Counted from the first letter of the stretch, positions 3,745 through 40,010 are shown. The stretch: DNA of 64,000 nucleotides from Candidatus Pacearchaeota archaeon (GCA_038869895.1 JAWCQE010000001.1:121879-185878); one strand, 5' to 3'. Program-made: numbers and translations. The notes: generated by a model not told the origin, from the letters alone.

Positions 3745-3745
3745 T

Positions 3746-7036: not shown

Positions 7037-7090
7037 TTAATATATTAAGATAACAGTTGATATGATTATATAAAAATTGCCTTAATAGAA

Positions 7091-8221
7091 TTACTTTAGT
7101 CCAAGATTAGCGAGAAGTTCTTCTTTTGAAAATTTTTCTAAATTTTTGTAATCTTGCCCTGTCCCTAGGAATAAGATTGGTTTTCCAGTTATATACCCTA
7201 TTGAGATTGCAGTTCCCCCTTTTTCATCTATGTCTGCTTTGGTTAAAATAGAACCATTAATTTCAAATAATTCATTGAATGATTTTGCCTGTTCAACAGC
7301 ATCATTACCTGTTATTGACTCAGCTATAAAAAGTTTTATATCAGGTTTGCAGACTCTTATTATCTTCTCCATCTCTTTCATTAGATTACTCTTAGTGTGC
7401 ATTCTTCCTGCAGTATCTATCATAACCACTTTTATCCCGTGTGATTTTGCATAAGAAATTGCGTCAAATGCAACTGCTGCTGGATCAGAACCATACTCAT
7501 GACTTATAACTTTAATCCCGAGGTTGTCACCATGCTTTTTTAGTTGTTCTATTGATGCTGCTCTGAAAGTATCTGAAGCTGCAAACACACACGAGATTTT
7601 GTGTTCATTGAGATAATATGCAAGTTTTGAAATAGTTGTTGTTTTGCCACTTCCGTTTATCCCAAAAAATAAAATAACAAAAGGGCCTTCTTTTTTCTCT
7701 CTTATTTTTTCAATAATATCAAATGGTTCTACAAGAATTCTTTTTATAGATTCTTTCAAAGAATTTTTGATTTCACTTTCAATTTCAGATTTTTTAATTT
7801 CAATATTCACAATATCCTTTTCCATATCTTCTTTTATTTTATCAACAACATTTAATGCTACATTATTCTCCAATAAAAGTGATTCCAATTCTTCAAAGAA
7901 TTCATCAAATATTTCCTTTGTTAAGCGCGATGTTGTAAATCTTCTTTTAATTCTTTCAAAAAATCCTTGTTCTTTTTCTAATTCAGGCTCTCCGATTTTT
8001 TCTTCAACTTGTTCTATTGAGTGTTCAAGTTTAATTGCGTTATCTTCTTTTAGTTTCTCTAAATCCTTTTTTTGTTTTTCAACACCTTCATATTTTTTTT
8101 CAGGTTCCTTTTCAATTTTTTCTTTTTTCTTGTCTTTTTCGTACTCTTCAGATTTTTCATCTTCTTTTTTTCCAAAGAATTTTGAAAGCTTTTCCTTTAA
8201 TGATTTGAACATTTTCTTCAA
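7091..8221 (-). CDS. ftsY: Signal recognition particle receptor FtsY
   Basis: SRP-GTPase NG domain motifs are present: GINGSGKTTTISKLA, DTAGR, TKAD. The N-terminus is an acidic K/E-rich region. Confidence 0.9.
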   Translation of the reverse strand: MKKMFKSLKEKLSKFFGKKEDEKSEEYEKDKKKEKIEKEPEKKYEGVEKQKKDLEKLKEDNAIKLEHSIEQVEEKIGEPELEKEQGFFERIKRRFTTSRLTKEIFDEFFEELESLLLENNVALNVVDKIKEDMEKDIVNIEIKKSEIESEIKNSLKESIKRILVEPFDIIEKIREKKEGPFVILFFGINGSGKTTTISKLAYYLNEHKISCVFAASDTFRAASIEQLKKHGDNLGIKVISHEYGSDPAAVAFDAISYAKSHGIKVVMIDTAGRMHTKSNLMKEMEKIIRVCKPDIKLFIAESITGNDAVEQAKSFNELFEINGSILTKADIDEKGGTAISIGYITGKPILFLGTGQDYKNLEKFSKEELLANLGLK

Positions 8222-12487: not shown

Positions 12488-12834
12488 ATTCTCCTAAGAG
12501 TGGTGATTTATGTTGTGGTGAAAGAAAACCTAAGGAAGTGTGGTGTGAGGACAATATATTTCACATATGTAAATCTGATTGTTTGATAGCAAAGGTAAAT
12601 TGTAGTGAATATGGAAAAATCTGCGGGATTAGTCCTCTTGATAAGGAATTATATGGTTCAGAAGAAATAAAATGCTGCTCTCCATGTCCTTATCCGGAAG
12701 GAACCAAAGTGTGTTCTTATGATAAAACTAAAATTTATGAGTGTGTTAAAGATTATCAATTAAAGCTAGCGGAAACTTGTCCTGATGGAAAAATATGTTT
12801 TGTTGATATAAATAATAATGCAGTTTGTATTTAA
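12469..12834 (+). CDS. Small cysteine-rich protein (frame open from 12469; first ATG at 12538)
   Basis: 16 Cys in ~100 aa (CC, CxxC-like spacings). No signal peptide of its own, so it may be fused to the upstream ORF by a frameshift. Confidence 0.35.
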   Translation, partial: SNQPVIDSPKSGDLCCGERKPKEVWCEDNIFHICKSDCLIAKVNCSEYGKICGISPLDKELYGSEEIKCCSPCPYPEGTKVCSYDKTKIYECVKDYQLKLAETCPDGKICFVDINNNAVCI

Positions 12835-12919: not shown

Positions 12920-12979
12920 ATATGTAAAATAATATGTTAAATAATATGTAAAATAATATGTTAAATAATATGAATATTA
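12920..12979. repeat. Tandem 12-bp repeat ATATGT(A/T)AAATA x ~5, overlapping the start of the wHTH gene
   Basis: Read directly from the sequence. The units alternate ATATGTAAAATA and ATATGTTAAATA, and each contains an ATG. Confidence 0.85.
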
Positions 12980-13155
12980 ATAATAAAGAGATATTAGATT
13001 TTGTAAAAAGTAAAAAGATAGTTACAAGTTCAGAAGTTGCGAAAAAATTTAATATTTCATGGAATACTGCAGATAAATATCTTCTTGAACTCGCATTTAA
13101 TGATAAAATCGAAAGAATTAAAAAAGAAGGGGTGAATTTATGGATTTTAAAATAA
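12958..13155 (+). CDS. Small winged-helix DNA-binding protein (putative transcriptional regulator)
   Basis: 65 aa. The pattern (ILDFVKSKKIVTSSEVAKKFNISWNTADKYLLELAFNDKIERI) is typical of wHTH proteins of the MarR/ArsR/TrmB-N type. The true start may be the ATG at 12970. Confidence 0.55.
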   Translation: MLNNMNINNKEILDFVKSKKIVTSSEVAKKFNISWNTADKYLLELAFNDKIERIKKEGVNLWILK

Positions 13156-13970
13156 AAAGTCAGATAAGTAAAAAATCAGCTTGCAAGAAAGGACAGGTGA
13201 CAATTTTTGTTATTATCTCTCTTCTTCTTGTTGTTGCAATAATCCTATTATTTATCCTTTACAAAAATCAGCAGATTCCTGGAGTAAGAGTCGAAAAAAC
13301 TTCTGGCGAGGAACTCGAGTCTTGTATTAAATCTTATCTTGAAGAAGCAGTCGATTTAATTTTTGAAAATTCTGGGTATATTGAACTGCCGGAATTAACT
13401 TATCAAATAAGAAATATTTATGGATATTACAAACAAGAAAATGAAAAGAAAATCCCTTATTTGTGTTATACTGCAATTAATTATGTAAGATGCATTCCGC
13501 AAGAGCCTTTTTTTGTAAACCATATAGAAGATGAAATAAAAAATTTCATAATTCCAAAAGTTGAGATATGTTTTGAGAATTTAAGGAATAGATTGCAAGA
13601 AAGAAATTATGAAACAATGTTTGGTATAACAAAAAATTTAGATGTTGAATTAAATGAAAGAGGAGTCCAAATTTATATTGAAAAAGAAATTTCGCAAACA
13701 AAAGCAGAGAAAGAAGAACGTTTTAGCGAATTTAAGTCTAATTATAAGACAAGATTGTATGATGTAGCAAAAATATCTGAAAAAATTATCACAGAGGAGG
13801 TTAAATTTTGCAATTCTGATTATGTTGAAGTGATGAGAAATAATAAATTAATTGAAATAACAAAATTTCAGACAGGAGATGATGTTAAAGTTTATTCTGT
13901 TAAGGATTTACCTTCAAAGAAAGAATTTAAATTTGCTGTAAGGAACTGTGTCCTTGCAACTCCATCTTAA
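13140..13970 (+). CDS. Pilin-like protein (class III signal peptide-like), cassette copy 1
   Basis: N-terminal KKGQVTIFVIISLLLVVAIILLFIL. It is a paralog of 17913..18734 (shared LCYT and KFAVRN/NFAVRS blocks). Confidence 0.55.
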   Translation: MDFKIKSQISKKSACKKGQVTIFVIISLLLVVAIILLFILYKNQQIPGVRVEKTSGEELESCIKSYLEEAVDLIFENSGYIELPELTYQIRNIYGYYKQENEKKIPYLCYTAINYVRCIPQEPFFVNHIEDEIKNFIIPKVEICFENLRNRLQERNYETMFGITKNLDVELNERGVQIYIEKEISQTKAEKEERFSEFKSNYKTRLYDVAKISEKIITEEVKFCNSDYVEVMRNNKLIEITKFQTGDDVKVYSVKDLPSKKEFKFAVRNCVLATPS

Positions 13971-13971
13971 A

Positions 13972-16900
13972 ATGAATAAAAAGTTTATCGCAGGAATTGA
14001 AATTTTTCTTGTCATAAGCATGGCTGTTTCATTTTCATGGATTCTAGGAAATATTTATGGGACTTCTCCAGATATAAAAAGTTTATTAGAATTTATAACA
14101 ATAATTCCAAGTGTTTCTGCCCAAACAACTACATCATGTTGTCTTAATTTGAAAAGCGGAGCCAGTTGTACTGACATTCCATCTGATTCATGTTCTGATA
14201 TTTGTGATGGAAATTGTGTTTCAGGGACAACATGTTCTCAACTAAGGGAATGCAATCTTGGATGTGGATTTAATTCTGATGAAGGAACATGCACTCCAAA
14301 TACTCCAAGGGTACTATGTGAAGGAGATGAGGGCTGTGAATTTCTTGATGACCCTTTTTGCAACAATCAAAAATGTGAAATTGGATGTTGTGTTCTTGGA
14401 TTGAGTGCGAATTTGGAGACGAGAACTGGATGTGAAATACAATCTTTAAGAAGAGGAGTATCATTTGAATTTGACAGTTCAATAAAAGATGGCGTTCAAT
14501 GTTTGAATAAGGGTAAAACAAGTGAGGGAGCTTGTGTTGTAAATTTTGGAGAAGAAAAAAATAACTGCATTTTTACAACACAAAGTGAGTGTGTCAACAA
14601 TATAAAAGGAGTTTTTTATGAAGGCTATCTTTGTTCTCATCCAGAACTTAAAACAATATGTGTGAAGCAGTCAAGAGTAAGTTGTTTTGACAATAGGGAT
14701 GAGGTATATTGGTATGATTCATGTGGGAATAGAGAAAATATTTATTCATCAAATAGGGCAAGTTCATGGAATAATGGATTCGTCTTATCGAAAGAGAAAT
14801 CATGCAATCCTAATTCTTCAAATGAAAATTCAGGAAGCTGTGGAAATTGTAATTATAATCTTGGAAGTATATGCGGAGAGTTTAGGCCTGGAGTTGATTC
14901 TGGAAATATGGAAGGTTATACTTGTAGAAATTTAAACTGCATTGATTCAAAAGGAAAACAAAGAACAAACGGAGAATCATGGTGTGTTTATGATGGAACT
15001 ATAGGCGGAGGAAGTATACTTGAAGGGAAGAGTGGGGGATTATTATCAAAAATAGCTGGAGGATTATTGGAGGGAGAGGTTGCATTATTAAGCACTGATT
15101 TAGTAGGGAGCAGACATTTTAGGCAGGTATGTGTTAATGGAAAAGTAGAGGTAGAACCATGCGCTGATTATAGGAAGGAGATATGTGTCCAGAATGATAA
15201 ATCCCTTGATAATGGAAGAAAGATTGATAATGCAATATGTAGGATGAATTTATGGGAACAATGTATTTCATACAATCAAGGAAATGAGGGATGTGGGCCA
15301 GGATGTTTAACCAAATGTGTGAAAAATCCAGATTGTAGGATTCATCCTGTTTTTGTTGACTCTCGTTTTAAATTTAATGCTTGTGTCCCAAAATATCCTC
15401 CTGGATTTGATTTAGGAAGTACAAGCGGAGTAGATAGTTTTGTAAGAAATTATGTATCAAGTTCTATTAGTGATTTGGATGGAGGTGGGGTTCTTTCAAA
15501 ATTATCAGGAAGTTTAAGTTCTGAGAATTCTGCAGGAAGCATTTGTTCTTTAGCATCGCAAAAATGCACTAGTATATGGACTAAGACATGCGGACTATCA
15601 GGAATTCATTGGGAATGCACGAAAAACTGCAAATGCCATACTGAATCTTTTACAATTCAGATGAATAATCTTTGTGTTTCTCTTGGAGATTGTGGAGTTT
15701 ATGCAAATTATGAAGGAAAGGTTACTCCTGGTGGAGCTTATGTAACAAAGAAAGGAGGACATGGAAGGACCCCTCTACAACCATTTATTTTGATTCCAGT
15801 TTATGCTGTTTTAGTTAAAATATTAAAACCAACTCCTCCAAGTGGTGGATTTTTTCGAGATGAGAAAGACATAGTGAATTTTCCAACTGAAATTATTGAT
15901 CCATTCTTAGGAGGGTATAATAGAATAGATGTAGGGAAACTGCCAAGTCAGTTGGATAATATGCTTGGAAGCCAGTTAGGAACAACTATCGGAGCAGGAG
16001 TTGCTGGAGGACTTGTAGGAGGGGTAGTTGCAGGACTAGGAGGAGTTACAGCTGCAGGTCTTGGAGTTATTGGGGCTGCTACACAAGGAATATTATGGGC
16101 ACCAATTATTTTTCCAACAGGGGGGGTGGGTATGTTACAAATACCAGTTACTTTTTATGCTCCCACTAACAATATCCTTTCAACTGTATTTCACGGACAT
16201 TATTTAGGTAAACCATTTTTCGGATTTGATCCTTTATCAATTGCAATTGGAATCGCAGTTGGAATCGCGATTACTTATCTTATTGGATGTGGAAAAGTTA
16301 AGACAGTTGATATCAAATTTCAGTGTTTACCTTGGCAAAGGCCAAAAGGCGGGACTGATTGTGAGAAATGTGATGATGACCCTTTGAAACCATGTTCAAG
16401 GTATAGGTGTGAATCTCTTGGAGCAAGATGCACTTTGATAAATGAAGGAAAAGGAGATGTATGCGTAAGTGTTTCTGGGGAAAGTTCTATACCAGTAATT
16501 AGTCCATGGGAAGAGATACTCAATACCTCTTTTTATAGGTATGAAGACATAAGTCCTAATGGATTTAAAATAAGAACAAAAGATGGACAGTGTATACAGG
16601 CATTTACTTATTTAGTTTTTGGAGTTGAAACAGATGTTTATTCGGAGTGTTTCTGGAGTTTAGAACCATTTGCATATGAAAATAAATCAGAGGCAAATTT
16701 ATTTTTAGAAGGAAATCTTTTAACTAAAAATCATACAATGCTAACTTTATTGCCAAGTGTTGAAAGTTTATTGGCTAATGAAATTAATAACCAAGAAGAA
16801 TTGGGACAGGCATTGGAAACAACAACAGAACAGGACATCAGCGCCAGGCAATACATATTAAATCGATTAGGAGATTTAAATATCTATGTAAAATGCGCAA

Positions 16901-17898
16901 ACCTTGATGGAAAAGCCAACGACCAGGATTATAAAATAAACTTCTGTGTGTCTCCTGGGCCAGATATACAAGAACCGGTAATAATTGCGTCTTCTCCTCC
17001 GCAGAACAACTTCACAAAATTTGATGCAACAGAACAAGAAGCTTTCTTTTTTATTTCAGAACCAGCTGAATGTAGATGGGATAGTACGAGGCAAGTTATA
17101 TCAAATGAATTAGAATCATATAATTCATTGAGAAATGAAATGGAATGTAGTGTTGATTTAGATGAAAGTACAATACTTGGATGGCCGTGCAATGCAACTC
17201 TTCCAATAACAGGCGAGGAAAATAGATTTTTTATTCAATGTCGAGACCAGCCGTGGCTTGGAAATAATAACTCAAGAAACATAGGAGACATTTTTGAATA
17301 TTCGTTAAAAAGAAGTAATTCTGAATTAAAAATAACTTCTATTAAACCTAATGAAAAAGTCTTTGCAGGAAGTGAACCTATTATGATTGAATTGGAAGTT
17401 GAGACATCAGGAGGAGTTGAAAATGGAAACGCTTTCTGCAAATATAGTTTTGACAATAATCAATTTGTAAATTTCAGAATTACAGGCGAGAAAGTTCATA
17501 GCCAAATTCTAAATCAGATGAGAAAAGGAGATTATAAAGTTTATATTCAGTGTAATGATTTTGCAGGAAATGTTGCAGAAGGCATTGGGGAGTTCTCATT
17601 AGAACTTGATACTAAAGCCCCTGTTATAACAAGAGTTTTTAGTAATGCTAACACTTTATTCATTACAACAGATGAAGAGGCAAAGTGTTTTTATAAGAAT
17701 GAATCTGATGTAGGATGTAATTTTCCGTTAAATAATGTTACTGAATTTAATATTACTGAATTTACAAAGAATGGAAATATTCACTCAACTCCTTTAATAA
17801 AAGGAAAGAGTTACTATATAAAATGCGAAGATATTTGGAGCAATAGAGCTGAGAGTTGTTCTATTGTTGTAAGGAGTTTTGAAAATTTTGCAAGTTAA
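13972..17898 (+). CDS. Giant cysteine-rich extracytoplasmic/membrane protein (1308 aa), cassette copy 1 (fused form)
   Basis: Signal peptide cleaved before AQTTTSCC. An extensive Cys-rich N-half follows, then a Gly-rich hydrophobic segment (GAGVAGGLVGGVVAGLGGVTAAGLGVIGAA). After it comes a CLPWQRPKGGTDCEKCDDD...PCSRYRCESLG motif and repeated Ig-like modules (NFCVSPGPD, DTKAPVITRV). Start refined to the in-frame ATG at 13972. Confidence 0.7.
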   Translation: MNKKFIAGIEIFLVISMAVSFSWILGNIYGTSPDIKSLLEFITIIPSVSAQTTTSCCLNLKSGASCTDIPSDSCSDICDGNCVSGTTCSQLRECNLGCGFNSDEGTCTPNTPRVLCEGDEGCEFLDDPFCNNQKCEIGCCVLGLSANLETRTGCEIQSLRRGVSFEFDSSIKDGVQCLNKGKTSEGACVVNFGEEKNNCIFTTQSECVNNIKGVFYEGYLCSHPELKTICVKQSRVSCFDNRDEVYWYDSCGNRENIYSSNRASSWNNGFVLSKEKSCNPNSSNENSGSCGNCNYNLGSICGEFRPGVDSGNMEGYTCRNLNCIDSKGKQRTNGESWCVYDGTIGGGSILEGKSGGLLSKIAGGLLEGEVALLSTDLVGSRHFRQVCVNGKVEVEPCADYRKEICVQNDKSLDNGRKIDNAICRMNLWEQCISYNQGNEGCGPGCLTKCVKNPDCRIHPVFVDSRFKFNACVPKYPPGFDLGSTSGVDSFVRNYVSSSISDLDGGGVLSKLSGSLSSENSAGSICSLASQKCTSIWTKTCGLSGIHWECTKNCKCHTESFTIQMNNLCVSLGDCGVYANYEGKVTPGGAYVTKKGGHGRTPLQPFILIPVYAVLVKILKPTPPSGGFFRDEKDIVNFPTEIIDPFLGGYNRIDVGKLPSQLDNMLGSQLGTTIGAGVAGGLVGGVVAGLGGVTAAGLGVIGAATQGILWAPIIFPTGGVGMLQIPVTFYAPTNNILSTVFHGHYLGKPFFGFDPLSIAIGIAVGIAITYLIGCGKVKTVDIKFQCLPWQRPKGGTDCEKCDDDPLKPCSRYRCESLGARCTLINEGKGDVCVSVSGESSIPVISPWEEILNTSFYRYEDISPNGFKIRTKDGQCIQAFTYLVFGVETDVYSECFWSLEPFAYENKSEANLFLEGNLLTKNHTMLTLLPSVESLLANEINNQEELGQALETTTEQDISARQYILNRLGDLNIYVKCANLDGKANDQDYKINFCVSPGPDIQEPVIIASSPPQNNFTKFDATEQEAFFFISEPAECRWDSTRQVISNELESYNSLRNEMECSVDLDESTILGWPCNATLPITGEENRFFIQCRDQPWLGNNNSRNIGDIFEYSLKRSNSELKITSIKPNEKVFAGSEPIMIELEVETSGGVENGNAFCKYSFDNNQFVNFRITGEKVHSQILNQMRKGDYKVYIQCNDFAGNVAEGIGEFSLELDTKAPVITRVFSNANTLFITTDEEAKCFYKNESDVGCNFPLNNVTEFNITEFTKNGNIHSTPLIKGKSYYIKCEDIWSNRAESCSIVVRSFENFAS

Positions 17899-17912
17899 AT
17901 TTATAAAGAAAT

Positions 17913-18734
17913 TTGTTTTTAGAAGGTAATAGAATGATTAAATCAAAAAACAAAAGAGGACAGACAACAATCTTTGTTATCTTAGCAGTAGTTATTGTTG
18001 CAGTCATAGTGATTTTTTTTGCAGTTACGGATATAGGGAGAGAAACTTTTGAAAAAATCTCTAATATTGTTGGCAGTGATGAGATTAATGTTAAAGAAGA
18101 ATTGAATAAATGTTTTATTGATAACAGCGAAATCAATAAAAAAATAAATCTAATTATGTCACAGGGAGGAAGTATTGAACCTTCTTTATTTTTTCTTCAT
18201 AATGGAACGAAATTAAGTTATTTATGTTATACTAATGAATTTTATAAGACATGTGTAAATCAGCAGCCTTTAATATTACAACATACAAAGAATGAGATAA
18301 ATAGGGCAATTCTTCCAGAAATAGATAAATGTATTTCTTCATTAAAAGCCAATTTTGAAAAAAGAGGATATCAAATAAGAGGACAGAATTTCGAGAGTTC
18401 AATAGATATAATTCACAACAACATAATTATTAAAATAAATTTCCCTCTAACTATCAAAAAGGGGGATTTAACACAGACATTTGAAAATTTTGAAATAAAA
18501 AAACATAGCCAGTATTATCAATTATTAAGTGTTGCAACATCAATTGTAAATTTTGAATCCCAATATGGCGATAGTGATCCAGTTTTATATATGTCTCTTT
18601 ATCCGAATACAAGAGTTGAAAAATTAAAACAAGGAGATGGGACAACAATTTATAAGATTAGTGATAGGGAAACAATGGAAACTTTTAACTTTGCTGTAAG
18701 AAGTTTGGCTTTGCCTATAGGATATGGATTATAA
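17913..18734 (+). CDS. Pilin-like protein (class III signal peptide), cassette copy 2
   Basis: N-terminal MIKSKNKRGQTTIFVILAVVIVAVIVIFFAV. Paralog of 13140..13970. Confidence 0.55.
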   Translation: MFLEGNRMIKSKNKRGQTTIFVILAVVIVAVIVIFFAVTDIGRETFEKISNIVGSDEINVKEELNKCFIDNSEINKKINLIMSQGGSIEPSLFFLHNGTKLSYLCYTNEFYKTCVNQQPLILQHTKNEINRAILPEIDKCISSLKANFEKRGYQIRGQNFESSIDIIHNNIIIKINFPLTIKKGDLTQTFENFEIKKHSQYYQLLSVATSIVNFESQYGDSDPVLYMSLYPNTRVEKLKQGDGTTIYKISDRETMETFNFAVRSLALPIGYGL

Positions 18735-18750
18735 ATTCAAATAGTTAAAA

Positions 18751-20607
18751 ATGGTGATTGAAAAAAAAGAAGAAAAATTGAAGAGAAAATTTACAAGTAA
18801 TTACTTTTTAGGTTTTAGTCTGTTTATTTTTTTTATTTTATTTTTTTCATCTTATGTCACGGCGCAGACAACGACAGTATGCTGTGAAAAAACTTTAAAT
18901 GGAGCTTACTGCCAGAATTCCATTCAAAGCCAGTGTGATTCAAGATTTTTAAGTTCACAAACAAGCTGTGATGCGACTTCTTTCTGTCAATTAGGAGTTT
19001 GTTATGATAGTGATGATGGATTATGTATGAATAATGTTCCTCAAAGGGCATGTGAAGAAGCAAACGGATTGTGGACAAGTGATGCAAATCCTCCCCAATG
19101 CAATTTAGGATGTTGTATTCTTGGGCAGCAGGCTTCTTTTACAACTCTTCAAAGATGTAAGAAATTATCTGGAACTTACGGACTTCAAGTGGATTTCAGA
19201 ACAGACATCAAAGACGAAGTTTCTTGTATTGCAGTTGCAAATGCACAAGACATTGGAGCTTGTGTTTTTGAGTCAGAATTTACAAGAACCTGTAAATTTG
19301 TTACAAGAGCTGAATGTGGCACTTCAATGAACTCAACAAATTCAGGAGTAGTTCCTAATACGCAATTTTTCAAGGATTTTTTATGTACTTCAGAACAGCT
19401 TAATACAAACTGCCAGAGAACCTCAAAAACTTCTTGTTTTGAAGGAGAGGATGAAGTTTATTTTATTGATAGCTGTGGGAATAAGGCTAATATTTATGAT
19501 GCTTCAAGAATAAATGATAAAAATTATTGGGAAAAAAGAGTTCCTAAAAGTCAGAGCTGCACTGCCTCTAGGAATTCTAGAAGTTGTGGAAACTGCGATT
19601 ATCTTGAAGGAAGTATTTGTTCTAAAGCTAAAGATTCTGGTGTTAAGCCAGCTTATGGCGAATTTATCTGTAGGGATATAAATTGTTATAGTACTTCAAA
19701 TGGAAAAAATTACAAAAATGGGGAGTCATGGTGTTTTTACGACAATAATAATAAAGGGGATGATAGGGTTGGAAGTAGACATTTTAGGCATATTTGTTTT
19801 ATGGGAGAGGAAATTGTAGAACCATGCGCTGATTATAGGCAAGAAACATGCATTGAAGATTCGATAAATGTTGAGGGCGGTGGAACTTTTCTACAAGCAG
19901 GATGTGTTGTGAATAGGTGGCATGATTGTTTGTTGCAGAAAAGAATTGAAGATTGCCAAAATACTGATTTAAGAGATTGTAAATGGATTCCGGTTTCTGA
20001 AGAACCTGAAGAGATAGCAAAAGGGATAATTGATGCATCTTTAAATAAAATTACAAATGGATTTTCTGGATTATTAATGAATGTTATTGAAAAAGATGAA
20101 AGAGATAAAGGGGCTTGTGTTCCAGATATTGCTCCAGGACTTGAATTTTGGGGGGAGTCGGCGGCATCTCAGTGTGACTTAGTAAGTTCAAGTTGTGTTA
20201 TAACTTATGAAAAGACGTTAATTGGAGGAAAAAAGTGTGTTAAGAATTGCTTTTGTGATATAAAAGAAAACCCACAAACAGCAATTCAGGCATTGAATAT
20301 ATGTTCCTCTATAGGAGACTGCGGACCAGGAGCAAATTATATAGGAAAATTTGTTAATAATGGTTATGAACTAAGAATAGATGACAAAAAAATAGGTCCT
20401 GAACTTAATTTAGGAATTTTTACTGCTTCTCCTGTTCAAAGTGGAAGTCCTGCAAATCCCTCTACAAATCCCTCTTTTGAACAAAGAAGAGAATTTTCAA
20501 CAGCAACACAACAGACATTTCAAACTCAAACCTCAACTGCAACTTCAACAACAGGAAATATTATCAAAGATATAATAACTGAAACATATAAACAACTTGG
20601 AAAATAA
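18751..20607 (+). CDS. Cysteine-rich secreted protein, paralog of the N-terminal half of the giant protein
   Basis: Signal peptide ending ...YVTAQTTTVCC. Cys spacing and blocks align with the 1316-aa protein (CNLGCC, SCGNCxYxLGSIC, EPCADYR). Confidence 0.65.
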   Translation: MVIEKKEEKLKRKFTSNYFLGFSLFIFFILFFSSYVTAQTTTVCCEKTLNGAYCQNSIQSQCDSRFLSSQTSCDATSFCQLGVCYDSDDGLCMNNVPQRACEEANGLWTSDANPPQCNLGCCILGQQASFTTLQRCKKLSGTYGLQVDFRTDIKDEVSCIAVANAQDIGACVFESEFTRTCKFVTRAECGTSMNSTNSGVVPNTQFFKDFLCTSEQLNTNCQRTSKTSCFEGEDEVYFIDSCGNKANIYDASRINDKNYWEKRVPKSQSCTASRNSRSCGNCDYLEGSICSKAKDSGVKPAYGEFICRDINCYSTSNGKNYKNGESWCFYDNNNKGDDRVGSRHFRHICFMGEEIVEPCADYRQETCIEDSINVEGGGTFLQAGCVVNRWHDCLLQKRIEDCQNTDLRDCKWIPVSEEPEEIAKGIIDASLNKITNGFSGLLMNVIEKDERDKGACVPDIAPGLEFWGESAASQCDLVSSSCVITYEKTLIGGKKCVKNCFCDIKENPQTAIQALNICSSIGDCGPGANYIGKFVNNGYELRIDDKKIGPELNLGIFTASPVQSGSPANPSTNPSFEQRREFSTATQQTFQTQTSTATSTTGNIIKDIITETYKQLGK

Positions 20608-22692
20608 ATGGAGAATAAAAAGTTAAGAAGAATGAAAAAAAAGGGAATAAAAAAAAGTGAAGGATTATTTTTAATAGCGAATATTCTTTTAGGGATTTTT
20701 GCCTTTGCGTTTATTATGAACGTTGAAGTTGTTAGAGGGCAGGCGGACGGAGTAGGTTCTAATGGAGATGAGGAGGGGAAAGTTGAGGACCAGAATGGGA
20801 TTGGCAATAAGGGGGGGAAAACAGGGGAAGAAAAAGGATCTAAAAAATTTAAAATAGGTAATTTCACAAAATCAGCAAGTTATATAACAGGAGGACTTGC
20901 GTTAGGACAAATTATAAAAGAACTTGCTGGTGATGAACCATGGGGGGATGCATTAGGGAATGCGTTGGGAGTTGCTGGAGGAGTTTCAGGTTTTTCTAGT
21001 TTATTTCCTGAAAAAACCTTTTTAGGAGGTAATGCTCATTTATTAGGGGTAGGGGCAGGAATACTAACTTTTATTTTAACATACAAGAAAATTGAATATG
21101 AAACTGTTTTTTTTACATGTCAACCATGGGAAGCTCCTATTGGAGGGAATGACTGTGAGAAATGTAATGATGGAGTCCATCCATGTTCTGAATATAGGTG
21201 CAAGAGTTTAGGACAGGCTTGTGATTTAGTTAATAAAGGAACTGAAAAGGAACTCTGCGTCTGGACAAATCCAAGAGATGTAAATAGTCCTTCAATAAGG
21301 CCACTTGAAAGCGCTTTAAGTCCAGGATATAGATATGTTCCTTTAGGGGCAAGGCCTCCTAATTGGGGAACTCAAATAAAACCTTTGGGAGACGATTGTA
21401 TTCCTCCATTTACTCCAATACAATTTGGAATACAAACAGACAAACCTTCTCAATGTAAGATTGACTTTTTAATTCTTGGAGGAGCGGGAGATGTTGATGT
21501 AAAACCAAAAGGATACGATGATATGAAATTCTTTTTTGGCATGAGTAATTTATATGATTATAATCATATTCAATCTTTGAGCTTGCCAAGTCCTAATACT
21601 ATAAATAAAGTTGATGAATTAAGGCAGAATGAAACAGGAGGTTTAGAAATACAAAATGATGGCATATATAACTTATATGTGCGATGTAGAAGTGCGAATG
21701 GATTTTATAATGCAGACCCTTATAAAATAAATTTCTGTGTTCAGAAAGGGCCAGACTTAACTCCTCCAGAAATTGTTGAAACAAGCATAAGAAACGGACA
21801 GCCTATAAACTTTGAAGCGGATAATGTAACTTTAAGTGTATTTACAAACGAACCTGTAAATTGCAAATGGTCAAGAGATAATGATTTAAGTTTTGAGAGT
21901 ATGAATAATGAAATGATATGCGCTAATAACCTTCAGGATATAAGAAATAATATGCTTTATGAGTGTAGAACTAGATTGACTGGAATAAAAGATAGGCAGG
22001 ATAATTTATTTTATTTCAGATGTGAAGACCAGCCTTGGGAATCTCCAAGCAATAGAAATAAAATGTCTAGAGGATATCAATTTGTCTTAAAAGGAACACA
22101 GCCTTTGAATATTAAACAAGATTCAATAAAGCCAATATCAGGGAGCATTTTAACAGGAGCGACTTCAACAATTCCTATAACTCTGGAAGTTGAAACTCAA
22201 AATGGATTTAATGAGGGAGAATCTGTTTGTCTTTATAGTTTGAATAATGAAACTTTCATAAGATTTTTTGAAACAAATTCATTTAAGCACAAGCAGACTC
22301 AAGATTTAACTCAGGGAGAATATACTTATTATATAAGATGTGTGGATTTAGGAGGAAATCAAGATTATGGTATTACAACTTTCAGTGTTTTTGTTGACAC
22401 TCAAGCACCATTAATTACAAGAGTCCTAAATGATAATAATAAACTTAAGATAATTACAGATGAGGAAGCAGTATGTAGATATACAAATGATATAAATACA
22501 AGATGCAATTTTGACATTAACGAGGGAGAGGGAAATCCAATGCAATATCCTTCTCAAAATCAGAGAAAAGAACATCTTGCAATGTGGAATACAAAAGAGA
22601 CTTATTATATCAAATGTATGGATATTAACAATAGACAACCGAATCCGACAGAATGTTCAATAATTGTTCGTCCTGTTGAGTTAAGAGAATAA
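20608..22692 (+). CDS. Membrane-anchored Ig-like repeat protein, paralog of the C-terminal half of the giant protein
   Basis: Starts immediately after the stop of the previous gene. It has an N-terminal TM and a Gly-rich hydrophobic segment. CQPWEAPIGGNDCEKCNDG...PCSEYRCKSLG, NFCVQKGPD and DTQAPLITRV match the C-half of 13972..17898. Confidence 0.65.
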   Translation: MENKKLRRMKKKGIKKSEGLFLIANILLGIFAFAFIMNVEVVRGQADGVGSNGDEEGKVEDQNGIGNKGGKTGEEKGSKKFKIGNFTKSASYITGGLALGQIIKELAGDEPWGDALGNALGVAGGVSGFSSLFPEKTFLGGNAHLLGVGAGILTFILTYKKIEYETVFFTCQPWEAPIGGNDCEKCNDGVHPCSEYRCKSLGQACDLVNKGTEKELCVWTNPRDVNSPSIRPLESALSPGYRYVPLGARPPNWGTQIKPLGDDCIPPFTPIQFGIQTDKPSQCKIDFLILGGAGDVDVKPKGYDDMKFFFGMSNLYDYNHIQSLSLPSPNTINKVDELRQNETGGLEIQNDGIYNLYVRCRSANGFYNADPYKINFCVQKGPDLTPPEIVETSIRNGQPINFEADNVTLSVFTNEPVNCKWSRDNDLSFESMNNEMICANNLQDIRNNMLYECRTRLTGIKDRQDNLFYFRCEDQPWESPSNRNKMSRGYQFVLKGTQPLNIKQDSIKPISGSILTGATSTIPITLEVETQNGFNEGESVCLYSLNNETFIRFFETNSFKHKQTQDLTQGEYTYYIRCVDLGGNQDYGITTFSVFVDTQAPLITRVLNDNNKLKIITDEEAVCRYTNDINTRCNFDINEGEGNPMQYPSQNQRKEHLAMWNTKETYYIKCMDINNRQPNPTECSIIVRPVELRE

Positions 22693-25159: not shown

Positions 25160-25648
25160 ATGAAAAGAGGACAATTTCAACTTGGATTTGGAATGATTTT
25201 CTCTATTATATTGATAATTGCATTTATAATTGTTGCATTTATTGCTTTCAAAGCTTTTTTTGGAGTGAGGTGTTCTACTGAACAAGGAAGATTTATTTAT
25301 GAACTTCAGAATGAAATTGACAGGATATGGAAAGGCTCGGGCGAGGATAGGATTAAGGAATTTAAAATTTTAGGATGTGATTTTGATTATGTTTGTTTTT
25401 GGGATCCAAATGTTCCTTCAAGAGGAAATTTCAGAACTTTTGAAGACGATTTCAGTATTTTTACAGGAGATGAAGGAAACCATAATTTATATTTTTATCC
25501 AAGAAAAAAAGTAGAAATTTCTTCAACCTTGATAAAGCATATTAATATGGATTTTAGAGAGAATCCTGTATGTTTTAGAAACGAGGAGAATTCTGTTAAA
25601 ATAAGACTCAGCAAAAACATTGACGAAGATTTAGTAAGAGTCTCATAA
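25160..25648 (+). CDS. Pilin-like protein (class III signal peptide)
   Basis: N-terminal MKRGQFQLGFGMIFSIILIIAFIIVAFIAF. Confidence 0.55.
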   Translation: MKRGQFQLGFGMIFSIILIIAFIIVAFIAFKAFFGVRCSTEQGRFIYELQNEIDRIWKGSGEDRIKEFKILGCDFDYVCFWDPNVPSRGNFRTFEDDFSIFTGDEGNHNLYFYPRKKVEISSTLIKHINMDFRENPVCFRNEENSVKIRLSKNIDEDLVRVS

Positions 25649-25649
25649 A

Positions 25650-26600
25650 ATGAATAAAAATGGTTTTGAGTTCAGCTTTGCATGGCTGTTTGCGATAATT
25701 GCTGGTGCAGCTGTGCTTTTTCTTGCAATTTTTTTTGCAACAAAATATGTTTCAACAAGCGAATTTGAAATTAATACAAAAATTGCAGCCGAATTTGTAA
25801 ATGTTCTTAATCCTTTGCAAACAAGTGTTTATGATTCATCTGCAATAAATGTATTTCTCCCATCTGAAGCGAGAATTTTTACTTCATGCGATAGTGGAGG
25901 AAATTTTGGAAGAAGTATTGTAACTTTTTCCGAAAAAATAGGTTTTGGTGAAAAATTTTCAAGGGCAGGCAATCCAATCTCAACTGAAAATTCATATTTA
26001 TTTGCTGAAAATATTATTGAAGGAAAAAAGATTAATTTTCTTGTTTTCTCTTTAAAAATGCCTTACAAAATTGGGGATATTCTTATAGCTTATTCTGATT
26101 CTTACTGCTTTGTAAATGCCCCAAGAAATATTGAGAGAGAACTTGGAGATTTAACAGAAGGAAATAGTTTTGATGTCATATTCACTTCAAATAAAAATGC
26201 CTGTCCTGAAAGTAAGCCTGTGTGTTTTGGAGGTTTTGAATGTGATATAAATGTAAGATGCAACGACAATGAATGTTTAAGTGGATTTGTAAGAAAGGAT
26301 GGAATGGATAATTATTTTACTGGAAAACTTTTATACGGAGCGATATTTTCGTCAAGGGAAAATTATGAGTGTAATGTTAAGAGATTAATGAAGAGGCTTG
26401 AATCAGTTAGCACTATTTATTCTAAAAAATCCCAGTTTATAGCTTCAAGAGGATGCACTAATACAAATTTGCTTCCATTAATTGAATCTCTTAGAGAATC
26501 TTCTGGAGAATTTGAAAGGCTTGAAAACCTCCCACAAATTTCCTCTATTGCAGACGAAGTAAATGAAAAAAATAAATATCTTGAATGCCAGTTATTTTAA
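25650..26600 (+). CDS. Pilin-like protein
   Basis: N-terminal hydrophobic helix FEFSFAWLFAIIAGAAVLFLAIFF. It is tightly linked to the neighbouring pilin-like genes. Confidence 0.45.
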   Translation: MNKNGFEFSFAWLFAIIAGAAVLFLAIFFATKYVSTSEFEINTKIAAEFVNVLNPLQTSVYDSSAINVFLPSEARIFTSCDSGGNFGRSIVTFSEKIGFGEKFSRAGNPISTENSYLFAENIIEGKKINFLVFSLKMPYKIGDILIAYSDSYCFVNAPRNIERELGDLTEGNSFDVIFTSNKNACPESKPVCFGGFECDINVRCNDNECLSGFVRKDGMDNYFTGKLLYGAIFSSRENYECNVKRLMKRLESVSTIYSKKSQFIASRGCTNTNLLPLIESLRESSGEFERLENLPQISSIADEVNEKNKYLECQLF

Positions 26601-27125
26601 ATGAAAGATAAAAAAGCCCAATTAAAGATAAAGCAGATGATTTTTATGCTTCTAGCTCTAACTATTTTTTTTGTTCTTGTTGCTTTGTTTTTTATCTCAA
26701 TAAAATCAATTAACCTTGAGAAAGAGGTTGTTGAATTAAAAAGAGATAGAGCTTCTAACTTAGTTGAAAAACTTTCTTCAACTCCGGAATTTATATTTGA
26801 AAACAAACCAAATTCAATTGATGCAGATAAACTTATTATCCTTCAAAGTGAAAGTATATATAGAACGAGAACGGATTCGACTTTTTGGGGAGTTGAGGGG
26901 ATAATAGTAAGAAGAATTTATCCGAAAGAAAGAGAGATTGAATGCACTAAATTTAACTATCCTGAATGTAATATTATCAAACTTTTTACAGAAAAAAATA
27001 CAAGTCCAACTTCAAGTTTCGTTTCATGGTGTAGAAAACAAAGTCTTGAAGGAAGGACGTATGATAAATGCGAACTTGCAGAACTTATGATAATTGAGGA
27101 AAAAATAAATGAAGCTCAAGACTAA
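26601..27125 (+). CDS. Pilin-like protein
   Basis: N-terminal KDKKAQLKIKQMIFMLLALTIFFVLVALFF. Confidence 0.5.
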   Translation: MKDKKAQLKIKQMIFMLLALTIFFVLVALFFISIKSINLEKEVVELKRDRASNLVEKLSSTPEFIFENKPNSIDADKLIILQSESIYRTRTDSTFWGVEGIIVRRIYPKEREIECTKFNYPECNIIKLFTEKNTSPTSSFVSWCRKQSLEGRTYDKCELAELMIIEEKINEAQD

Positions 27126-27609
27126 AAAATCGCAGGAAGAAATAGTCGGGTTTGTTTTAATAGTTGTCCTTATTGCTATTATCGGAGTTATATTTTTAGG
27201 GATATCCTTAAGAAAGGATTCAGGTAAGGTTAATGAAAGCCAAAAAATTGCAAGCCTTATAACTTCAATATCTCATTTGACAACTCAGTGTCAGATAAAT
27301 TCAAATTTCCAAGATGTAAGTGATTTAATAAATGGGTGTGCTAATAGAAGAATTTGCGATGATTCAAAGCCTACTTGTGAAGTCTTAAAAACCACTCTTG
27401 ATGAGGTTATGAAAGCAAGTTATGTTGTAACTGATAAAAGCTTTACAACACATTATAATTTAACAATAAATAATAAATTTGATAATACTATTTTAATAGA
27501 GCCGGTAATTTCAGGAAAAGTTGAAAGATGTCTTGGAAGAAAACTCGTAAATGAAAAAAATTTTGGCAGAGATTTATCAATGAGGATTGAAGTCTGTTTT
27601 AATGAATAA
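27109..27609 (+). CDS. Pilin-like protein
   Basis: N-terminal KTKKSQEEIVGFVLIVVLIAIIGVIFLGI. Confidence 0.5.
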   Translation: MKLKTKKSQEEIVGFVLIVVLIAIIGVIFLGISLRKDSGKVNESQKIASLITSISHLTTQCQINSNFQDVSDLINGCANRRICDDSKPTCEVLKTTLDEVMKASYVVTDKSFTTHYNLTINNKFDNTILIEPVISGKVERCLGRKLVNEKNFGRDLSMRIEVCFNE

Positions 27610-27661
27610 TTCATTAAACTTGAAATGTTGCTGGAACTCTAAGAAACCCGCTGGAGGTTTG

Positions 27662-28015
27662 TTAAATTCGCACAATAATGTTAATAGTATTGGCAGTCAA
27701 CACTGGCTTATGAGTTATCCTTCCGTTATGTTGTTCTGCTACTAAATCAATTAAGCCAAATTTTCTTAATAAAAGGACATCCTCTCTTAATGTTTTGAAA
27801 TCTCTATTTAATATTTTTGCTAAAGAGTAAAGGGATTTTGGTTGTTTCATTTTGATTGTATGTAATAATCTTGCTTTTTCATTACTTAGTAACTTCCTCA
27901 ATATTGATAAATCTTTAATGTTATAATCTTCTTTACTTCCTGTGAATTTTCTAAACACAGAGGCAAATGTCCCAGCTTTCTCGTATATATCTATTATCCT
28001 TGTTTTGTCAACCAT
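27662..28015 (-). CDS. Winged-helix transcriptional regulator
   Basis: 117 aa with a C-terminal wHTH-like segment (LYSLAKILNRDFKTLREDVLLLRKFGLIDLV). It is convergent with the pilin-like cluster. Confidence 0.5.
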   Translation of the reverse strand: MVDKTRIIDIYEKAGTFASVFRKFTGSKEDYNIKDLSILRKLLSNEKARLLHTIKMKQPKSLYSLAKILNRDFKTLREDVLLLRKFGLIDLVAEQHNGRITHKPVLTANTINIIVRI

Positions 28016-28460
28016 TTTTTTTGCCTTGTATTTCCATTTTTATTTTCTTTGGCTAAATTTTTTCACCAATAAATTTAATTATTTTATATATGGTTTTCTT
28101 TGCCATATATATTTAATTTCTTTATAAATTAAATTATTATTTTATTATATATGGTTACAAAAACCATATACCTATATAAATGTTTCTTTTTATTTATTGA
28201 AAAATCTGTCTTCTTATATAATAGTAACATAATATTTATAAATAACTGGCTAAAAAGAGGGGACTTTAGAATATTTTAGAGAAAAACTTTATAAATGGGT
28301 TTTTCTTGTATCTTTTGTCGTGCCGATGACAAGCTTTGGCTTTTGCTTTAGCTTATAATTGCTCAAGGTAATTGAACAATGAGAAAATAAAATTGCCTTG
28401 GGGATGCCGATACCTAAATTGGTATTGACAAATGATTAAAATAATGAAAGGAGGTTTAAT

Positions 28461-31115
28461 ATGAAAATTAATTTTAGAAAAGTCGGTTCAGTTATTGCGA
28501 GTGCAGCTATGCTTGGAAGCACAATGGGAATTGCTGTTGCAGCCTCTTATCCTGGTGCGTTTACTGCAGGAGGGGCTGGAGGAGTAGCAATAGTTACAGG
28601 AAGTATTGCAGCTTCAAGTGATTTTGTTGCAGCAACAGAGATAGGTTCAAATTTAAACAGTGCGATTGCTGCAGGTATAATTACTACTGGTGGAAGTGTT
28701 ACAACTAGTGGAGAAACAAAAGCACTTTTTACAGGTTCCTCAAAAATATATATGAATGATAGTATAAGCATAAATAAAGCTACTTTAACGAAAACTGATT
28801 TGCCAACTATTCTTGCAGATGGTGAATTTAATGGAAATGTTGATTCTGAATATACACAAAGAATTATTCTTGGTTCTTATCCAAGAGTTATTTTTGGAAA
28901 AATGCCAACAACTGAGAATGATCCTTTAACAGGAATCAACCTTGGCACAACAGTTACAACACAATATTTATATAATATGACAGTTACATTTGACGAAGCA
29001 GTTAACTTTACCCACTCTGATTCAAAAACAAAAGGGACTGAAATTACTTTATTTGGACAGAAATTTACAGTGGCTGGAGCTACAGATTCTAGTAAATTGG
29101 TATTATTGAAGTCAGCTCAAAAAATTACTTTGGGTCTTGGAGGAAACAATCCTAATCCAGTTCAATCTGTAACAGTTAATGATAGGACGTATACAGTAGA
29201 ACTTACAAATGTTCAAGATGATGAGGCCATAATTAAAGTAACTGATAGTAATGGACAAAGTTCAACAGCAAGAATTAGTGAAGGGGCTTCAAGAAAAGTT
29301 CAAGGATTAGAAGTTGCAGTTAACATAGCTACAGAATCAACTGCATTGAGTAGTGCATGGGCAGATATTATTGTTGGAACCTCAAAAGTTACTCTTCAAG
29401 ATGGAGAGCCTGTGAAAGTAGGTTCTGAGGATAAGATAATTGATGGTACTCAAGTTGATTTTGTTGATACCACATATACTGGGAATATAACTAGACTTGT
29501 TGTCCAAGTTGCAGCACCTGAAAGTGATAAAGATGCGATAACTCCTGCAATGTCATTTGTTGACCCTGTTTTTGGAGGTTTCAAAGTTGATTTTCCTGGA
29601 TTAAATATTGCAAATGAAGATGAAACTGCCAGAGAAATGATTGAAGTCAAGAATTCAGGAAGTGACAAAATGACTGTAAAATTTACAGACTATAATAAAG
29701 GTGAGATAACCTTTAATTGGGTCTATAACAGATCTAATTCACAGGGAGGAATTATGAGATTAGCAGATTCAAACAACAGAAGGATAATTGTTGCTGAAAT
29801 GTCTCCTATAAATAAATCAGAATATGTTATGGTTGGAAATGAAGATGAAGGAGGATTGTACCAAGTTGTAACAATCACAAATTCTTCGGGATTTTCAGAT
29901 GATTCAGTTGAATTAAGAGATGTTATTACAGGAAAAACTGAAAAAGCTTCTATTACTGCTGAAGGTTCTGGAACTATTGTCCTTAATGGAAAGACATATG
30001 AGGTAAGTTATTTTGCACCAAACACTTTAACTGACACAGCAAGAACCATAAGATTAAATTATCCTGACAGTTCAGGCAATAGTGTAATCTTATATCCTAC
30101 AATTGAAACGTCAAAAGGAGCAAAAATTGCTTTCTATGAACCATTAACTATAGATCTGATGACTCAACATGCTGGAGGCAATTTATCTGGACATAATATA
30201 AAATTTCCAGATGGAGATGGTTATACTGACGCCGCAGTTGTTATTGTAAATACAACTACTGGAATGGTGACTATAGATGGGAACAATCTTAATACAGGTG
30301 CTTCAGATGGAGCAAGTTCTACAACTAAAACTGTCGGAAGATTAACTTACAATTTCACAAGTACAGGTGTTGGTAACAATACGAAGGTCTATCTTCAAGC
30401 AATTCCAGGAGTAAATATTGTAAGGCCTGCAATAATCCTTTTTGAAGAAAAAGATGACCAAAATAATTACGAGGCTGTAGTTATTACATTAGATTCAGGT
30501 TATGACGGAGATAGTGCAGGAATCGGAGTCCAAAATGTTATAAGAACATGGGGGCTTGATGGTTCTAATGGAGATTCAGATGCATGGAATGATGTAAGAC
30601 TTGAAAGCAATGATGACTTGTATCAAGACATGGATAGATGGGGAACAATAATCACTGCTGATAAATCTGATAGTGATCAAACAAGGGCTGTAATAAGCTA
30701 CCCAGATGAACAAGTATATGCACAAGTCTATGTATCTTCATCAAATGCAGTCGTGTCTTCAGGAAATGGAGGAGCAGGAACCGTAATGGTTGTGAGAGAT
30801 AATGAAGTTGACAACATTGCAAACAAGAATCTGATTGTTGTTGGGGGTAGCTGTGTAAATACATTAGCTGCTGAATTGCTTGGAAGTTCAAATCCTTTAT
30901 GTGGAAGGGATTTCACTGCAAGAACAAATGTCGGTGTTGGAGAATACCTAATTGAAACTTTCTCACGAACTGACGGAAAAATTGCTACCTTAGTCGCAGG
31001 ATATGAAGCTGATGATACAAGGGCTGCAGCAAGGTCTTTGGTAACAAATAATCCAGAGATTGCTTCTGGTGTCAAGTATAAAGGTTCGACTTCAGGCTCA
31101 TTCACAAGAGCGTAA
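28461..31115 (+). CDS. Candidate S-layer / major cell-surface protein
   Basis: Signal peptide MKINFRKVGSVIASAAMLGSTMGIAVAA. 884 aa rich in T/S/G/N/V and poor in Cys until a C-terminal CVNTLAAELLGSSNPLC pair. GC content and codon usage are clearly above the contig background. A strong SD (AGGAGGT) and an AT-rich promoter lie upstream. Confidence 0.55.
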   Translation: MKINFRKVGSVIASAAMLGSTMGIAVAASYPGAFTAGGAGGVAIVTGSIAASSDFVAATEIGSNLNSAIAAGIITTGGSVTTSGETKALFTGSSKIYMNDSISINKATLTKTDLPTILADGEFNGNVDSEYTQRIILGSYPRVIFGKMPTTENDPLTGINLGTTVTTQYLYNMTVTFDEAVNFTHSDSKTKGTEITLFGQKFTVAGATDSSKLVLLKSAQKITLGLGGNNPNPVQSVTVNDRTYTVELTNVQDDEAIIKVTDSNGQSSTARISEGASRKVQGLEVAVNIATESTALSSAWADIIVGTSKVTLQDGEPVKVGSEDKIIDGTQVDFVDTTYTGNITRLVVQVAAPESDKDAITPAMSFVDPVFGGFKVDFPGLNIANEDETAREMIEVKNSGSDKMTVKFTDYNKGEITFNWVYNRSNSQGGIMRLADSNNRRIIVAEMSPINKSEYVMVGNEDEGGLYQVVTITNSSGFSDDSVELRDVITGKTEKASITAEGSGTIVLNGKTYEVSYFAPNTLTDTARTIRLNYPDSSGNSVILYPTIETSKGAKIAFYEPLTIDLMTQHAGGNLSGHNIKFPDGDGYTDAAVVIVNTTTGMVTIDGNNLNTGASDGASSTTKTVGRLTYNFTSTGVGNNTKVYLQAIPGVNIVRPAIILFEEKDDQNNYEAVVITLDSGYDGDSAGIGVQNVIRTWGLDGSNGDSDAWNDVRLESNDDLYQDMDRWGTIITADKSDSDQTRAVISYPDEQVYAQVYVSSSNAVVSSGNGGAGTVMVVRDNEVDNIANKNLIVVGGSCVNTLAAELLGSSNPLCGRDFTARTNVGVGEYLIETFSRTDGKIATLVAGYEADDTRAAARSLVTNNPEIASGVKYKGSTSGSFTRA

Positions 31116-31240
31116 AAACAATTTATTTTTACTTTTTCTTTTATTTTTTATTTATAAAATAATTATATATTAATTAAATTATAAAAAGTCAATAAACTAA
31201 TGTATCGTTCATTTAAAAAATAAAACTTGTTAAGAGATTA

Positions 31241-37179: not shown

Positions 37180-40010
<2,831 letters not shown>

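Follow-up and report, generated by a model that had tools for sequence, protein, structure and literature searches.

A stretch of 64,000 nucleotides of DNA from a Candidatus Pacearchaeota archaeon (GCA_038869895.1 JAWCQE010000001.1:121879-185878), here called the window, has a low GC (guanine plus cytosine) content of about 29% and carries two tandem paralogous cassettes, in which a large gene is fused in one cassette and split into two genes in the other. The split was shown to be genuine, old and under selection, and to be conserved together with the fused paralogue across many Pacearchaeota and Woesearchaeota genomes. An earlier note on the window had placed the underlying event between the window's own two copies; instead, the layout with one fused and one split module proved to be old and conserved at this locus. 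Fission and fusion of genes among paralogues are known phenomena; new are the large, previously uncharacterised family of predicted DPANN surface proteins, the conserved combination of a fused and a split module in one locus, and a family-specific signal-anchor that was redistributed between fused and split form. A search of literature full text gave no description of the family or of the locus.

Fused and split genes in the window and in related genomes

Open reading frame (ORF) calling in the window revealed five plus-strand ORFs that span positions 13140-22692. Cassette 1 consists of a 276-aa pilin-like gene and a gene for a protein of 1308 or 1316 aa, and cassette 2 of a 273-aa pilin-like gene followed by genes for proteins of 618 aa (N half) and 694 aa (C half). 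The features of both cassettes, with transmembrane abbreviated as TM and immunoglobulin as Ig, are as follows; the signal-anchor profile is described in the next section.

13140..13970, plus strand: p1, 276-aa pilin-like protein of cassette 1 (ORF), class III-type signal KKGQ/VTIFVIISLLLVVAIILLF
13972..17898, plus strand: fused N-C protein of cassette 1, 1308 aa from ATG 13972; the ORF is open from GTG 13948, which gives 1316 aa
13969..14052, plus strand: predicted family-specific N-terminal signal-anchor of the fused protein, KKFIAGIEIFLVISMAVSFSWILGNIYG (profile of C-half N-termini, 13.2 bits, E 1e-4)
14113..15735, plus strand: Cys-rich N domain of copy 1 (residues 56-596; 50 Cys), from BLASTP against the 618-aa protein
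15769..15825, plus strand: hydrophobic stretch TPLQPFILIPVYAVLVKIL of copy 1, aligning with the tail helix of the stand-alone N half
15988..16272, plus strand: Gly-rich hydrophobic helices of copy 1, including the last TM helix directly before the C domain (hydropathy scan)
16315..17895, plus strand: C domain of copy 1, in which tandem Ig-like domains come after a Cys knob (CxPW..DCEKC..PCSxYRC)
17913..18734, plus strand: p2, 273-aa pilin-like protein of cassette 2 (266 aa in an independent gene call), signal KRGQ/TTIFVILAVVIVAVIVIFF
18751..20607, plus strand: stand-alone N half, 618 aa, 43 Cys, ending ...ETYKQLGK
20605..20610, plus strand: junction TAA ATG, stop and start codon adjacent and in the same frame
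20608..22692, plus strand: stand-alone C half, 694 aa, starting MENKKLRRMKKKGIKK; 21 Cys, all past residue 168
20632..20754, plus strand: predicted family-specific signal-anchor at the C-half N-terminus, MKKKGIKKSEGLFLIANILLGIFAFAFIMNVEVVRG/QADG (signal-anchor profile)
20941..21081, plus strand: predicted helices 112-132 and 142-158 of the C half, the second being the conserved TM helix ..LLGVGAGILTFILTYKK directly before the C domain
21112..22689, plus strand: C domain of copy 2, a Cys knob followed by tandem Ig/Fn3-like beta-sandwiches

The homology of the two halves to copy 1, as claimed in the earlier note, was confirmed when the copy-1 protein was aligned with both copy-2 proteins by BLASTP. 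The 618-aa protein is 33% identical to the 1316-aa protein (residues 36-538 versus 56-596, E 5e-68) and the 694-aa protein 35% identical (residues 146-691 versus 767-1312, E 6e-80), so that homology extends across the N and the C half; p1 and p2 share 26% identity (E 6e-21). The 618-aa N half is composed of a generic signal peptide (..SSYVTA/QTTTVCC), the Cys-rich domain (residues 36-540), a low-complexity linker and the C-terminal helix GNIIKDIITETYKQLGK. For the fused protein, the start at ATG 13972 (1308 aa) is also the choice of an independent gene call in locus L006; an identical database protein is present (P0001), and more than 580 homologues were retrieved, nearly all of about 1200-1350 aa.

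At the junction the sequence reads GGA AAA TAA ATG GAG, and the 618-aa and 694-aa ORFs share one frame with a single TAA between them, a detail absent from the earlier note. Since one changed base could suffice to make or abolish the split, an artefact and a nonsense mutation were examined closely as rival explanations. A Logan assembly of run SRR27730039 matches the window at 100% identity over 17,049 bp, TAA-ATG included, and QW727_00815, from a Candidatus Pacearchaeota metagenome-assembled genome (MAG) at NCBI, has the same sequence as the 618-aa protein. The best 120 matches listed for the N half were all stand-alone proteins of 500-804 aa with identities of up to 67%. For the C half, an exhaustive HMMER search with the 694-aa query yielded 2292 homologues among 50%-identity representatives; most of the best 150 representatives are stand-alone proteins of 650-950 aa that start with Met, a Lys-rich stretch and a hydrophobic helix. 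Word-index searches with a fused or concatenated query had made the fused state look dominant, and the first tree held only 5 split sequences; this apparent dominance was a sampling bias, which was exposed by the exhaustive search and by a search with the N half alone.

For a census of the locus, one genome per GTDB species was scanned and 80 loci were fetched from Pacearchaeota, Woesearchaeota and Nanoarchaeota MAGs; the ORFs of 83 non-redundant loci were classed by BLAST against the window domains. The survey of fused and split states that the earlier note had called for gave the full order pilin-like, fused, pilin-like, N and C gene in 41 of the 83 loci, and several further loci fit this order but end at contig ends. 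The order pilin-like, N, C was found in 14 loci, both modules were fused in 2, and a single fused module only was present in 3. Separate N and C genes occur in more than 70 species-level genomes. Among 73 N-C pairs the median gap is 26 bp and the range -98 to 2164 bp; the gap lies between -8 and +2 bp in 17 pairs and exceeds 400 bp in 27. N and C share a frame in 18 of the 73 pairs, about the chance expectation, and N precedes C on the same strand in every pair. In 19 of the 27 loci with wide gaps an intervening ORF is present; the commonest kind is a gene for a predicted lipoprotein of 150-290 aa that has an LxGC lipobox (for example L007 9309-10007, L010 8570-9340, L022 9327-9950 and L041 8358-9929). 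L020, L041 and L065 additionally encode a polytopic membrane protein of about 335 aa between N and C, judged glycosyltransferase/MraY-like from its N-terminal sequence alone. The window has neither a lipoprotein gene nor a polytopic gene at this place.

Two loci illustrate the split. In L001, from a Pacearchaeota MAG, a 277-aa product precedes a fused one of 1428 aa, and a 266-aa product precedes an N half of 755 aa and, past a 116-bp spacer, a C half of 902 aa. L004 has its N and C genes in different frames, separated by about 230 bp that contain many stops, and the termini of the split N and C genes are conserved. A split that is placed elsewhere was observed in L013 (CAZWEB010000045.1, about 3419-7452), where the C ORF starts within the end of the N domain (..GDCGGYVNYLGKY..) and keeps a fused-type internal hydrophobic segment; a fused gene with a frameshift or a faulty assembly is the probable explanation, which places this case outside the conserved split.

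Intact separate ORFs were therefore found in independent genomes, in frames and at positions beyond what one shared error would give. It is highly improbable that TAA 20605-20607 stems from faulty sequencing or assembly, or from a recent nonsense mutation, within one 1312-aa gene, or that it is read through: although a lone stop codon between two ORFs in one frame is the pattern expected from a single substitution, the independent Logan assembly carries the same sequence, the nearest relatives of both halves are also split, and the C half opens with the full K-rich signal-anchor that is characteristic of C halves encoded on their own. Moreover, the varied gaps (spacers of up to 2 kb), frames and intervening genes in the related genomes exclude a sequencing error, a nonsense mutation of recent origin and conserved read-through. 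Since same-frame pairs are no commoner than chance, neither read-through nor recoding of the in-frame TAA was accepted as a conserved feature. The view of the earlier note that the split is functional, and that the second protein has its own N-terminal K-rich signal or TM helix, is supported by the recurrence of both across the species-level genomes. It is likewise improbable, if less so, that N and C are functionally unrelated neighbours which have had independent roles since the split and lost a former complex. The wide gaps, the genes that lie between N and C in most of these loci and the lineage-specific variation of the C-terminal tail of the N half would agree with such a loss, but the invariant order and strand, the 17 nearly abutting pairs, which are compatible with translational coupling, and the fact that both genes remain beside the same pilin-like gene and fused paralogue argue against it.

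The junction and the family-specific signal-anchor

In the earlier note the hydrophobic region of copy 1 had been considered consistent with a fused former stop/start boundary, which the data did not support. Its segment LQPFILIPVYAVLVKIL (residues 610-626 of the 1316-aa protein, about nt 15775-15825) falls in the stretch that aligns with the N-half tail: ILIPVYAVL of copy 1 shares alignment columns with the C-terminal tail IITETYKQL of the 618-aa protein, and related N-half tails read LVVRTYNKI and LVVNAYNKM. The tail of the 618-aa protein is a predicted helix (residues 604-617, AlphaFold2 (AF2)). A signal-anchor profile was built from the N-termini of 70-odd stand-alone C halves (consensus MKKKKKKKKLKALFQILNLILSIIAFSFLIGSEFGVVSAQ). 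Against the hydrophobic segment located past the N domain of fused proteins, this profile reached a maximum of 3.9 bits, compared with 11.5 bits in the reversed-sequence control. A by-eye alignment of that segment with the C-half signal was dropped because the profile test gave no support.

Against the extreme N-terminus of fused proteins, the same profile gave median scores of 24-35 bits across sets, with a maximum of 48 bits. The C-half signal is therefore not simply new, since it matches the N-terminal signal-anchor of fused proteins. With at least 15 bits as threshold, the element was found in 46 of the 59 fused proteins in the loci and in 74-100% of those across database sets, as well as in 94% of independent stand-alone C halves. 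Stand-alone N halves carry it in 2 of 83 cases in the loci and in 10% of a database set, pilin-like proteins in 0 of 133, and other ORFs of at least 150 aa, taken from about 1.4 Mb of flanking DNA, in 1 of 730. Among the window ORFs, convincing matches were confined to the 694-aa ORF and the beginning of the fused gene; the 44.9 bits of the 694-aa protein were obtained with a profile that had this sequence among its inputs. AF2 predicts a helix at C-half residues 2-37, and the 618-aa N half gave no match to the profile.

The distribution across protein classes indicates that the element is family-specific and not a generic signal peptide. The possibility that the motif is the usual signal peptide of these organisms was rejected, as only one of the 730 other ORFs matches. 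In the split form the predicted anchor is thus located on the C half, and the N half has what is predicted to be an ordinary signal peptide. From this placement it follows that more than a stop and a start codon within the linker distinguishes the fused from the split form. In the fused form, the N domain behaves as a module placed between anchor and remainder; in the split form it has its own gene upstream. The only unrelated family with a weak match to the profile (9-22 bits) is a conserved TM protein of about 190-214 aa at window positions 31241-31885 with its homologues (e.g. L011 17666-18241); the matching segment is ..RNQIIIAFVFISILTSSTIGFVF...

Direction of change

The relationships of 440 N domains were analysed in a neighbour-joining tree with midpoint root. 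Clade A comprises 211 fused proteins, including window copy 1, and one 758-aa fragment. Clade B comprises two basal branches with about 29 fused proteins and a core of 177 split and 21 fused proteins. Bootstrap values were 94% for clade A versus the rest and 64% for the clade B core versus the rest. Since the paralogue clade and the basal branches of clade B are both fused, the most parsimonious course is a single early fission of a fused ancestor; the trees favour this course at moderate support, and it is considered the somewhat more probable one. The split would have arisen once, near the base of the clade of the split module (module 2), by a route in which the C half retained the N-terminal anchor or received a copy of it, such as duplication with subsequent complementary deletions. 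No intermediate of such a route was seen. A simple stop and start appearing in the linker does not explain the data.

Several observations weigh against an early single fission. Its direction depends on a neighbour-joining tree, a midpoint root and a bootstrap value of 64%. About 21 fused proteins lie inside the split clade, and those of L012, L015 and L049, whose neighbours include the few N halves with the family anchor, are placed alike in the N- and C-domain trees. This occurrence of fused proteins within the split clade suggests repeated interconversion, perhaps as later re-fusions or repeated fissions, or a split ancestor. Additionally, a minority of stand-alone N halves carry the family anchor (P0443, P0418, P0452, P0458 and P0455; up to 38.6 bits). 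Four of them (P0443, P0452, P0455 and P0458) adjoin the fused proteins P0121, P0124 and P0128 inside the split clade of the tree, which hints at more recent fission or fusion events in these sublineages.

If the split state were ancestral, N and C would have been two genes first, the fused proteins of 1200-1350 aa would have arisen by gene fusion, possibly repeatedly, and the hydrophobic segment after the N domain would be the decayed signal peptide of a former C gene. This course is regarded as rather unlikely, although it is the one to which the scattered fused proteins with the same placement in both trees would lend themselves. In the sublineages concerned the N halves bear the family anchor, and a read-through fusion would there give the order anchor, N, old anchor, C; the internal segment of module-2-type fused proteins ends in ..VVSG, which resembles the end of the C-half signal, and one base change in the TAA of the window would join both ORFs. 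However, clade A and the basal branches of clade B are fused, so that more events would be needed, and the internal segment has no significant match to the signal profile, its best score being at the level of the reversed control. Moreover, most N halves have a generic signal, from which read-through would not recreate the N-terminus of the fused proteins. A fused ancestor with an early fission therefore remains the preferred reading.

Predicted envelope modules, genomic surroundings and known systems

Scans of the five cassette proteins against Pfam and NCBIfam gave no family at cut-off. The 694-aa protein matches the bacterial Ig-like family Big_13 (PF19077) with 18.4 bits (E 0.0032), which is below the gathering threshold of 27 bits and does not make it a member; Big_13 has no counterpart of the Cys knob, TM region and signal-anchor of the window family. 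Searching PDB chains with the family profile gave a single chance-level match (E 0.073), and for the Cys-rich N half no fold relative was detectable in the PDB. The AF2 models of the N half and the C half each have a mean pLDDT (predicted local distance difference test score) of 80, with cores above 90, and fold comparison identified the C half as Ig/Fn3-like sandwiches. S-layer family models of Pfam (S_layer_C and related) gave no match to the cassette proteins, in which vWA, DUF2341 and PilY1 beta-propeller domains were likewise not found. The class III pattern, [KR]-G-[QAS] followed by a hydrophobic helix of about 20 aa, is present in p1 (KKGQ/VTIF..) and p2 (KRGQ/TTIF..), and 74 of 132 homologous pilin-like ORFs show the strict pattern of [KR]GQ and a hydrophobic run. 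Curated pilin and archaellin models of Pfam and NCBIfam did not reach cut-off with p1 or p2, the best being Tad (PF13400) with E 0.059, and no Peptidase_A24 gene was found among the window ORFs scanned.

On these grounds it appears probable that the region consists of two old paralogous modules of a DPANN-specific envelope-protein system. Each module would comprise a protein of about 270 aa with a type IV pilin-like (class III) signal, a Cys-rich domain (N) that spans about 500 aa and is secreted, and a stalk (C) of Ig-like domains in tandem that is anchored in the membrane. In module 1, N and C would be parts of one polypeptide: the family-specific signal-anchor would come first, the N domain and a short tail helix would follow, and a variable linker would lead to the TM helices and the C domain. 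In module 2, the N half would have an ordinary signal peptide and end at or near the tail helix; the family signal-anchor would open the C half, ahead of its linker, TM helices and C domain. Both modules probably form structures at the cell surface, in which a Cys-rich head would sit on a membrane-anchored Ig-like stalk and have a pilin-like partner, and their likely role is cell-surface adhesion or an envelope structure tied to the pilin-like proteins. The anchor helix may act in the membrane together with the TM helices of the C half; the fused form would then carry the N domain as a large insert outside the cell, and the split form would have it as a head that is secreted separately and presumably docked non-covalently. 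The adjacent TAA-ATG of the window genome would permit coupled translation of both subunits.

The anchor motif is strongly conserved, including polar residues within the helix, which suggests that the anchor stays in the mature protein and packs with the TM helices of the stalk, or that a dedicated factor recognises it. Either would explain why the anchor goes with the C half. Two findings do not fit easily with this architecture. By the positive-inside rule, the YKK past the last TM helix would make the C domain cytoplasmic, although paired Cys in the Ig-like domains argue for an extracellular C domain, and type IV pilus machinery genes like those at the start of the window were present within 10 kb of the cassettes in 0 of the 83 related loci. 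More speculatively, and with low expectation, Pacearchaeota and Woesearchaeota might keep two versions of one apparatus, with the head either tethered between anchor helix and stalk or provided as a detachable secreted subunit; the anchor (..ALFQILNLILSIIAFSFLIGSE..VVSA) would then be a new family-specific assembly or sorting signal in the membrane, and the system a main device by which these episymbiotic archaea attach to hosts.

The surroundings of the cassettes contain the following features.

327-1289, plus strand: T2SSF/PilC-like gene
1342-2127, plus strand: KaiC/ArlH-like ATPase gene
2827-7036, minus strand: pilin-like cluster, four proteins with class III-type signal (305 aa; vWA protein, 820 aa; 155 aa; DUF7266 protein, 129 aa)
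25160-27609: four pilin-like ORFs of 162, 316, 174 and 166 aa with signals KRGQ/, NKNG/, KKAQ/ and KKSQ/
27662-28015, minus strand: small protein with a Pfam HVO_A0114 match
28461-31115: S_layer_C-like protein of 884 aa (S_layer_C match, E 5.5e-8)
37181-40015, minus strand: archaeal large-subunit ribosomal RNA (rRNA) gene

Downstream of the cassettes, a conserved block at 25160-32562 holds the four pilin-like ORFs, the HVO_A0114 protein, the S_layer_C-like protein and two TM proteins. Its members were present in 23-43 of the 83 related loci (tblastn), and the conserved block thus reaches well past the two cassettes. Directly upstream of cassette 1, a 65-aa ORF (12958-13155), read as helix-turn-helix-like from its sequence alone, is conserved in 24 of the 83 loci and is directly preceded by a Cys-rich 98-aa ORF with a GTG start (12538-12834). 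Small-subunit and 5S rRNA genes were not detected in the 64-kb window, and the rRNA genes appear to be unlinked.

The DPANN archaea of the Pacearchaeota/Woesearchaeota group are uncultured, and their host attachment and envelope building are largely obscure. The locus encodes some of the largest predicted surface proteins of this group, belonging to a family of thousands, and is conserved across many species. The coexistence of fused and split forms constitutes a natural experiment on which parts have to remain together: the signal-anchor stays with the stalk, and the head is detachable. It also provides a well-populated case of fission or fusion in which an export signal was redistributed rather than created at the break. 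Although the weight of the finding hinges on the function of the proteins, the locus is a clear target for studies of expression, localisation and interaction.

Gene fission by duplication and complementary degeneration is a general evolutionary mechanism. The window resembles it in having a fused paralogue and a split pair in tandem and in that each split product keeps an N-terminal export signal; it differs in that the family anchor is found on the downstream C gene and a generic signal on the upstream N gene, and in that intermediates were not directly observed. In Sulfolobales the S-layer is built from two components, the SlaA canopy and the SlaB membrane stalk, and other archaea have single-chain S-layer glycoproteins. 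A secreted outer subunit and a membrane-anchored beta-sandwich stalk encoded by adjacent genes, with single-chain versions in related organisms, are features shared with SlaA/SlaB. No homology of the cassette proteins to SlaA/SlaB-type S-layers was detected, however, the TM region of the window-family stalk is N-terminal to the Ig-like domains, and a separate S_layer_C-like gene is located in the same block.

Modules of minor pilins and a large adhesin are known from type IV pili, such as PilY1 with FimU-PilVWX in Pseudomonas and the DUF2341 proteins of methanococcal pilus loci (PMC4858521). In contrast to these, the window proteins have no sequence or fold similarity to PilY1, DUF2341 or vWA domains, the large protein of the window family has its own membrane anchor, and pilus machinery is unlinked in other genomes. 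As in these modules, a small gene for a protein with class III signal is located directly upstream of that for a predicted surface protein of more than 1000 aa, and the neighbourhood in the window is rich in pilin-like genes and includes a PilC-like gene.

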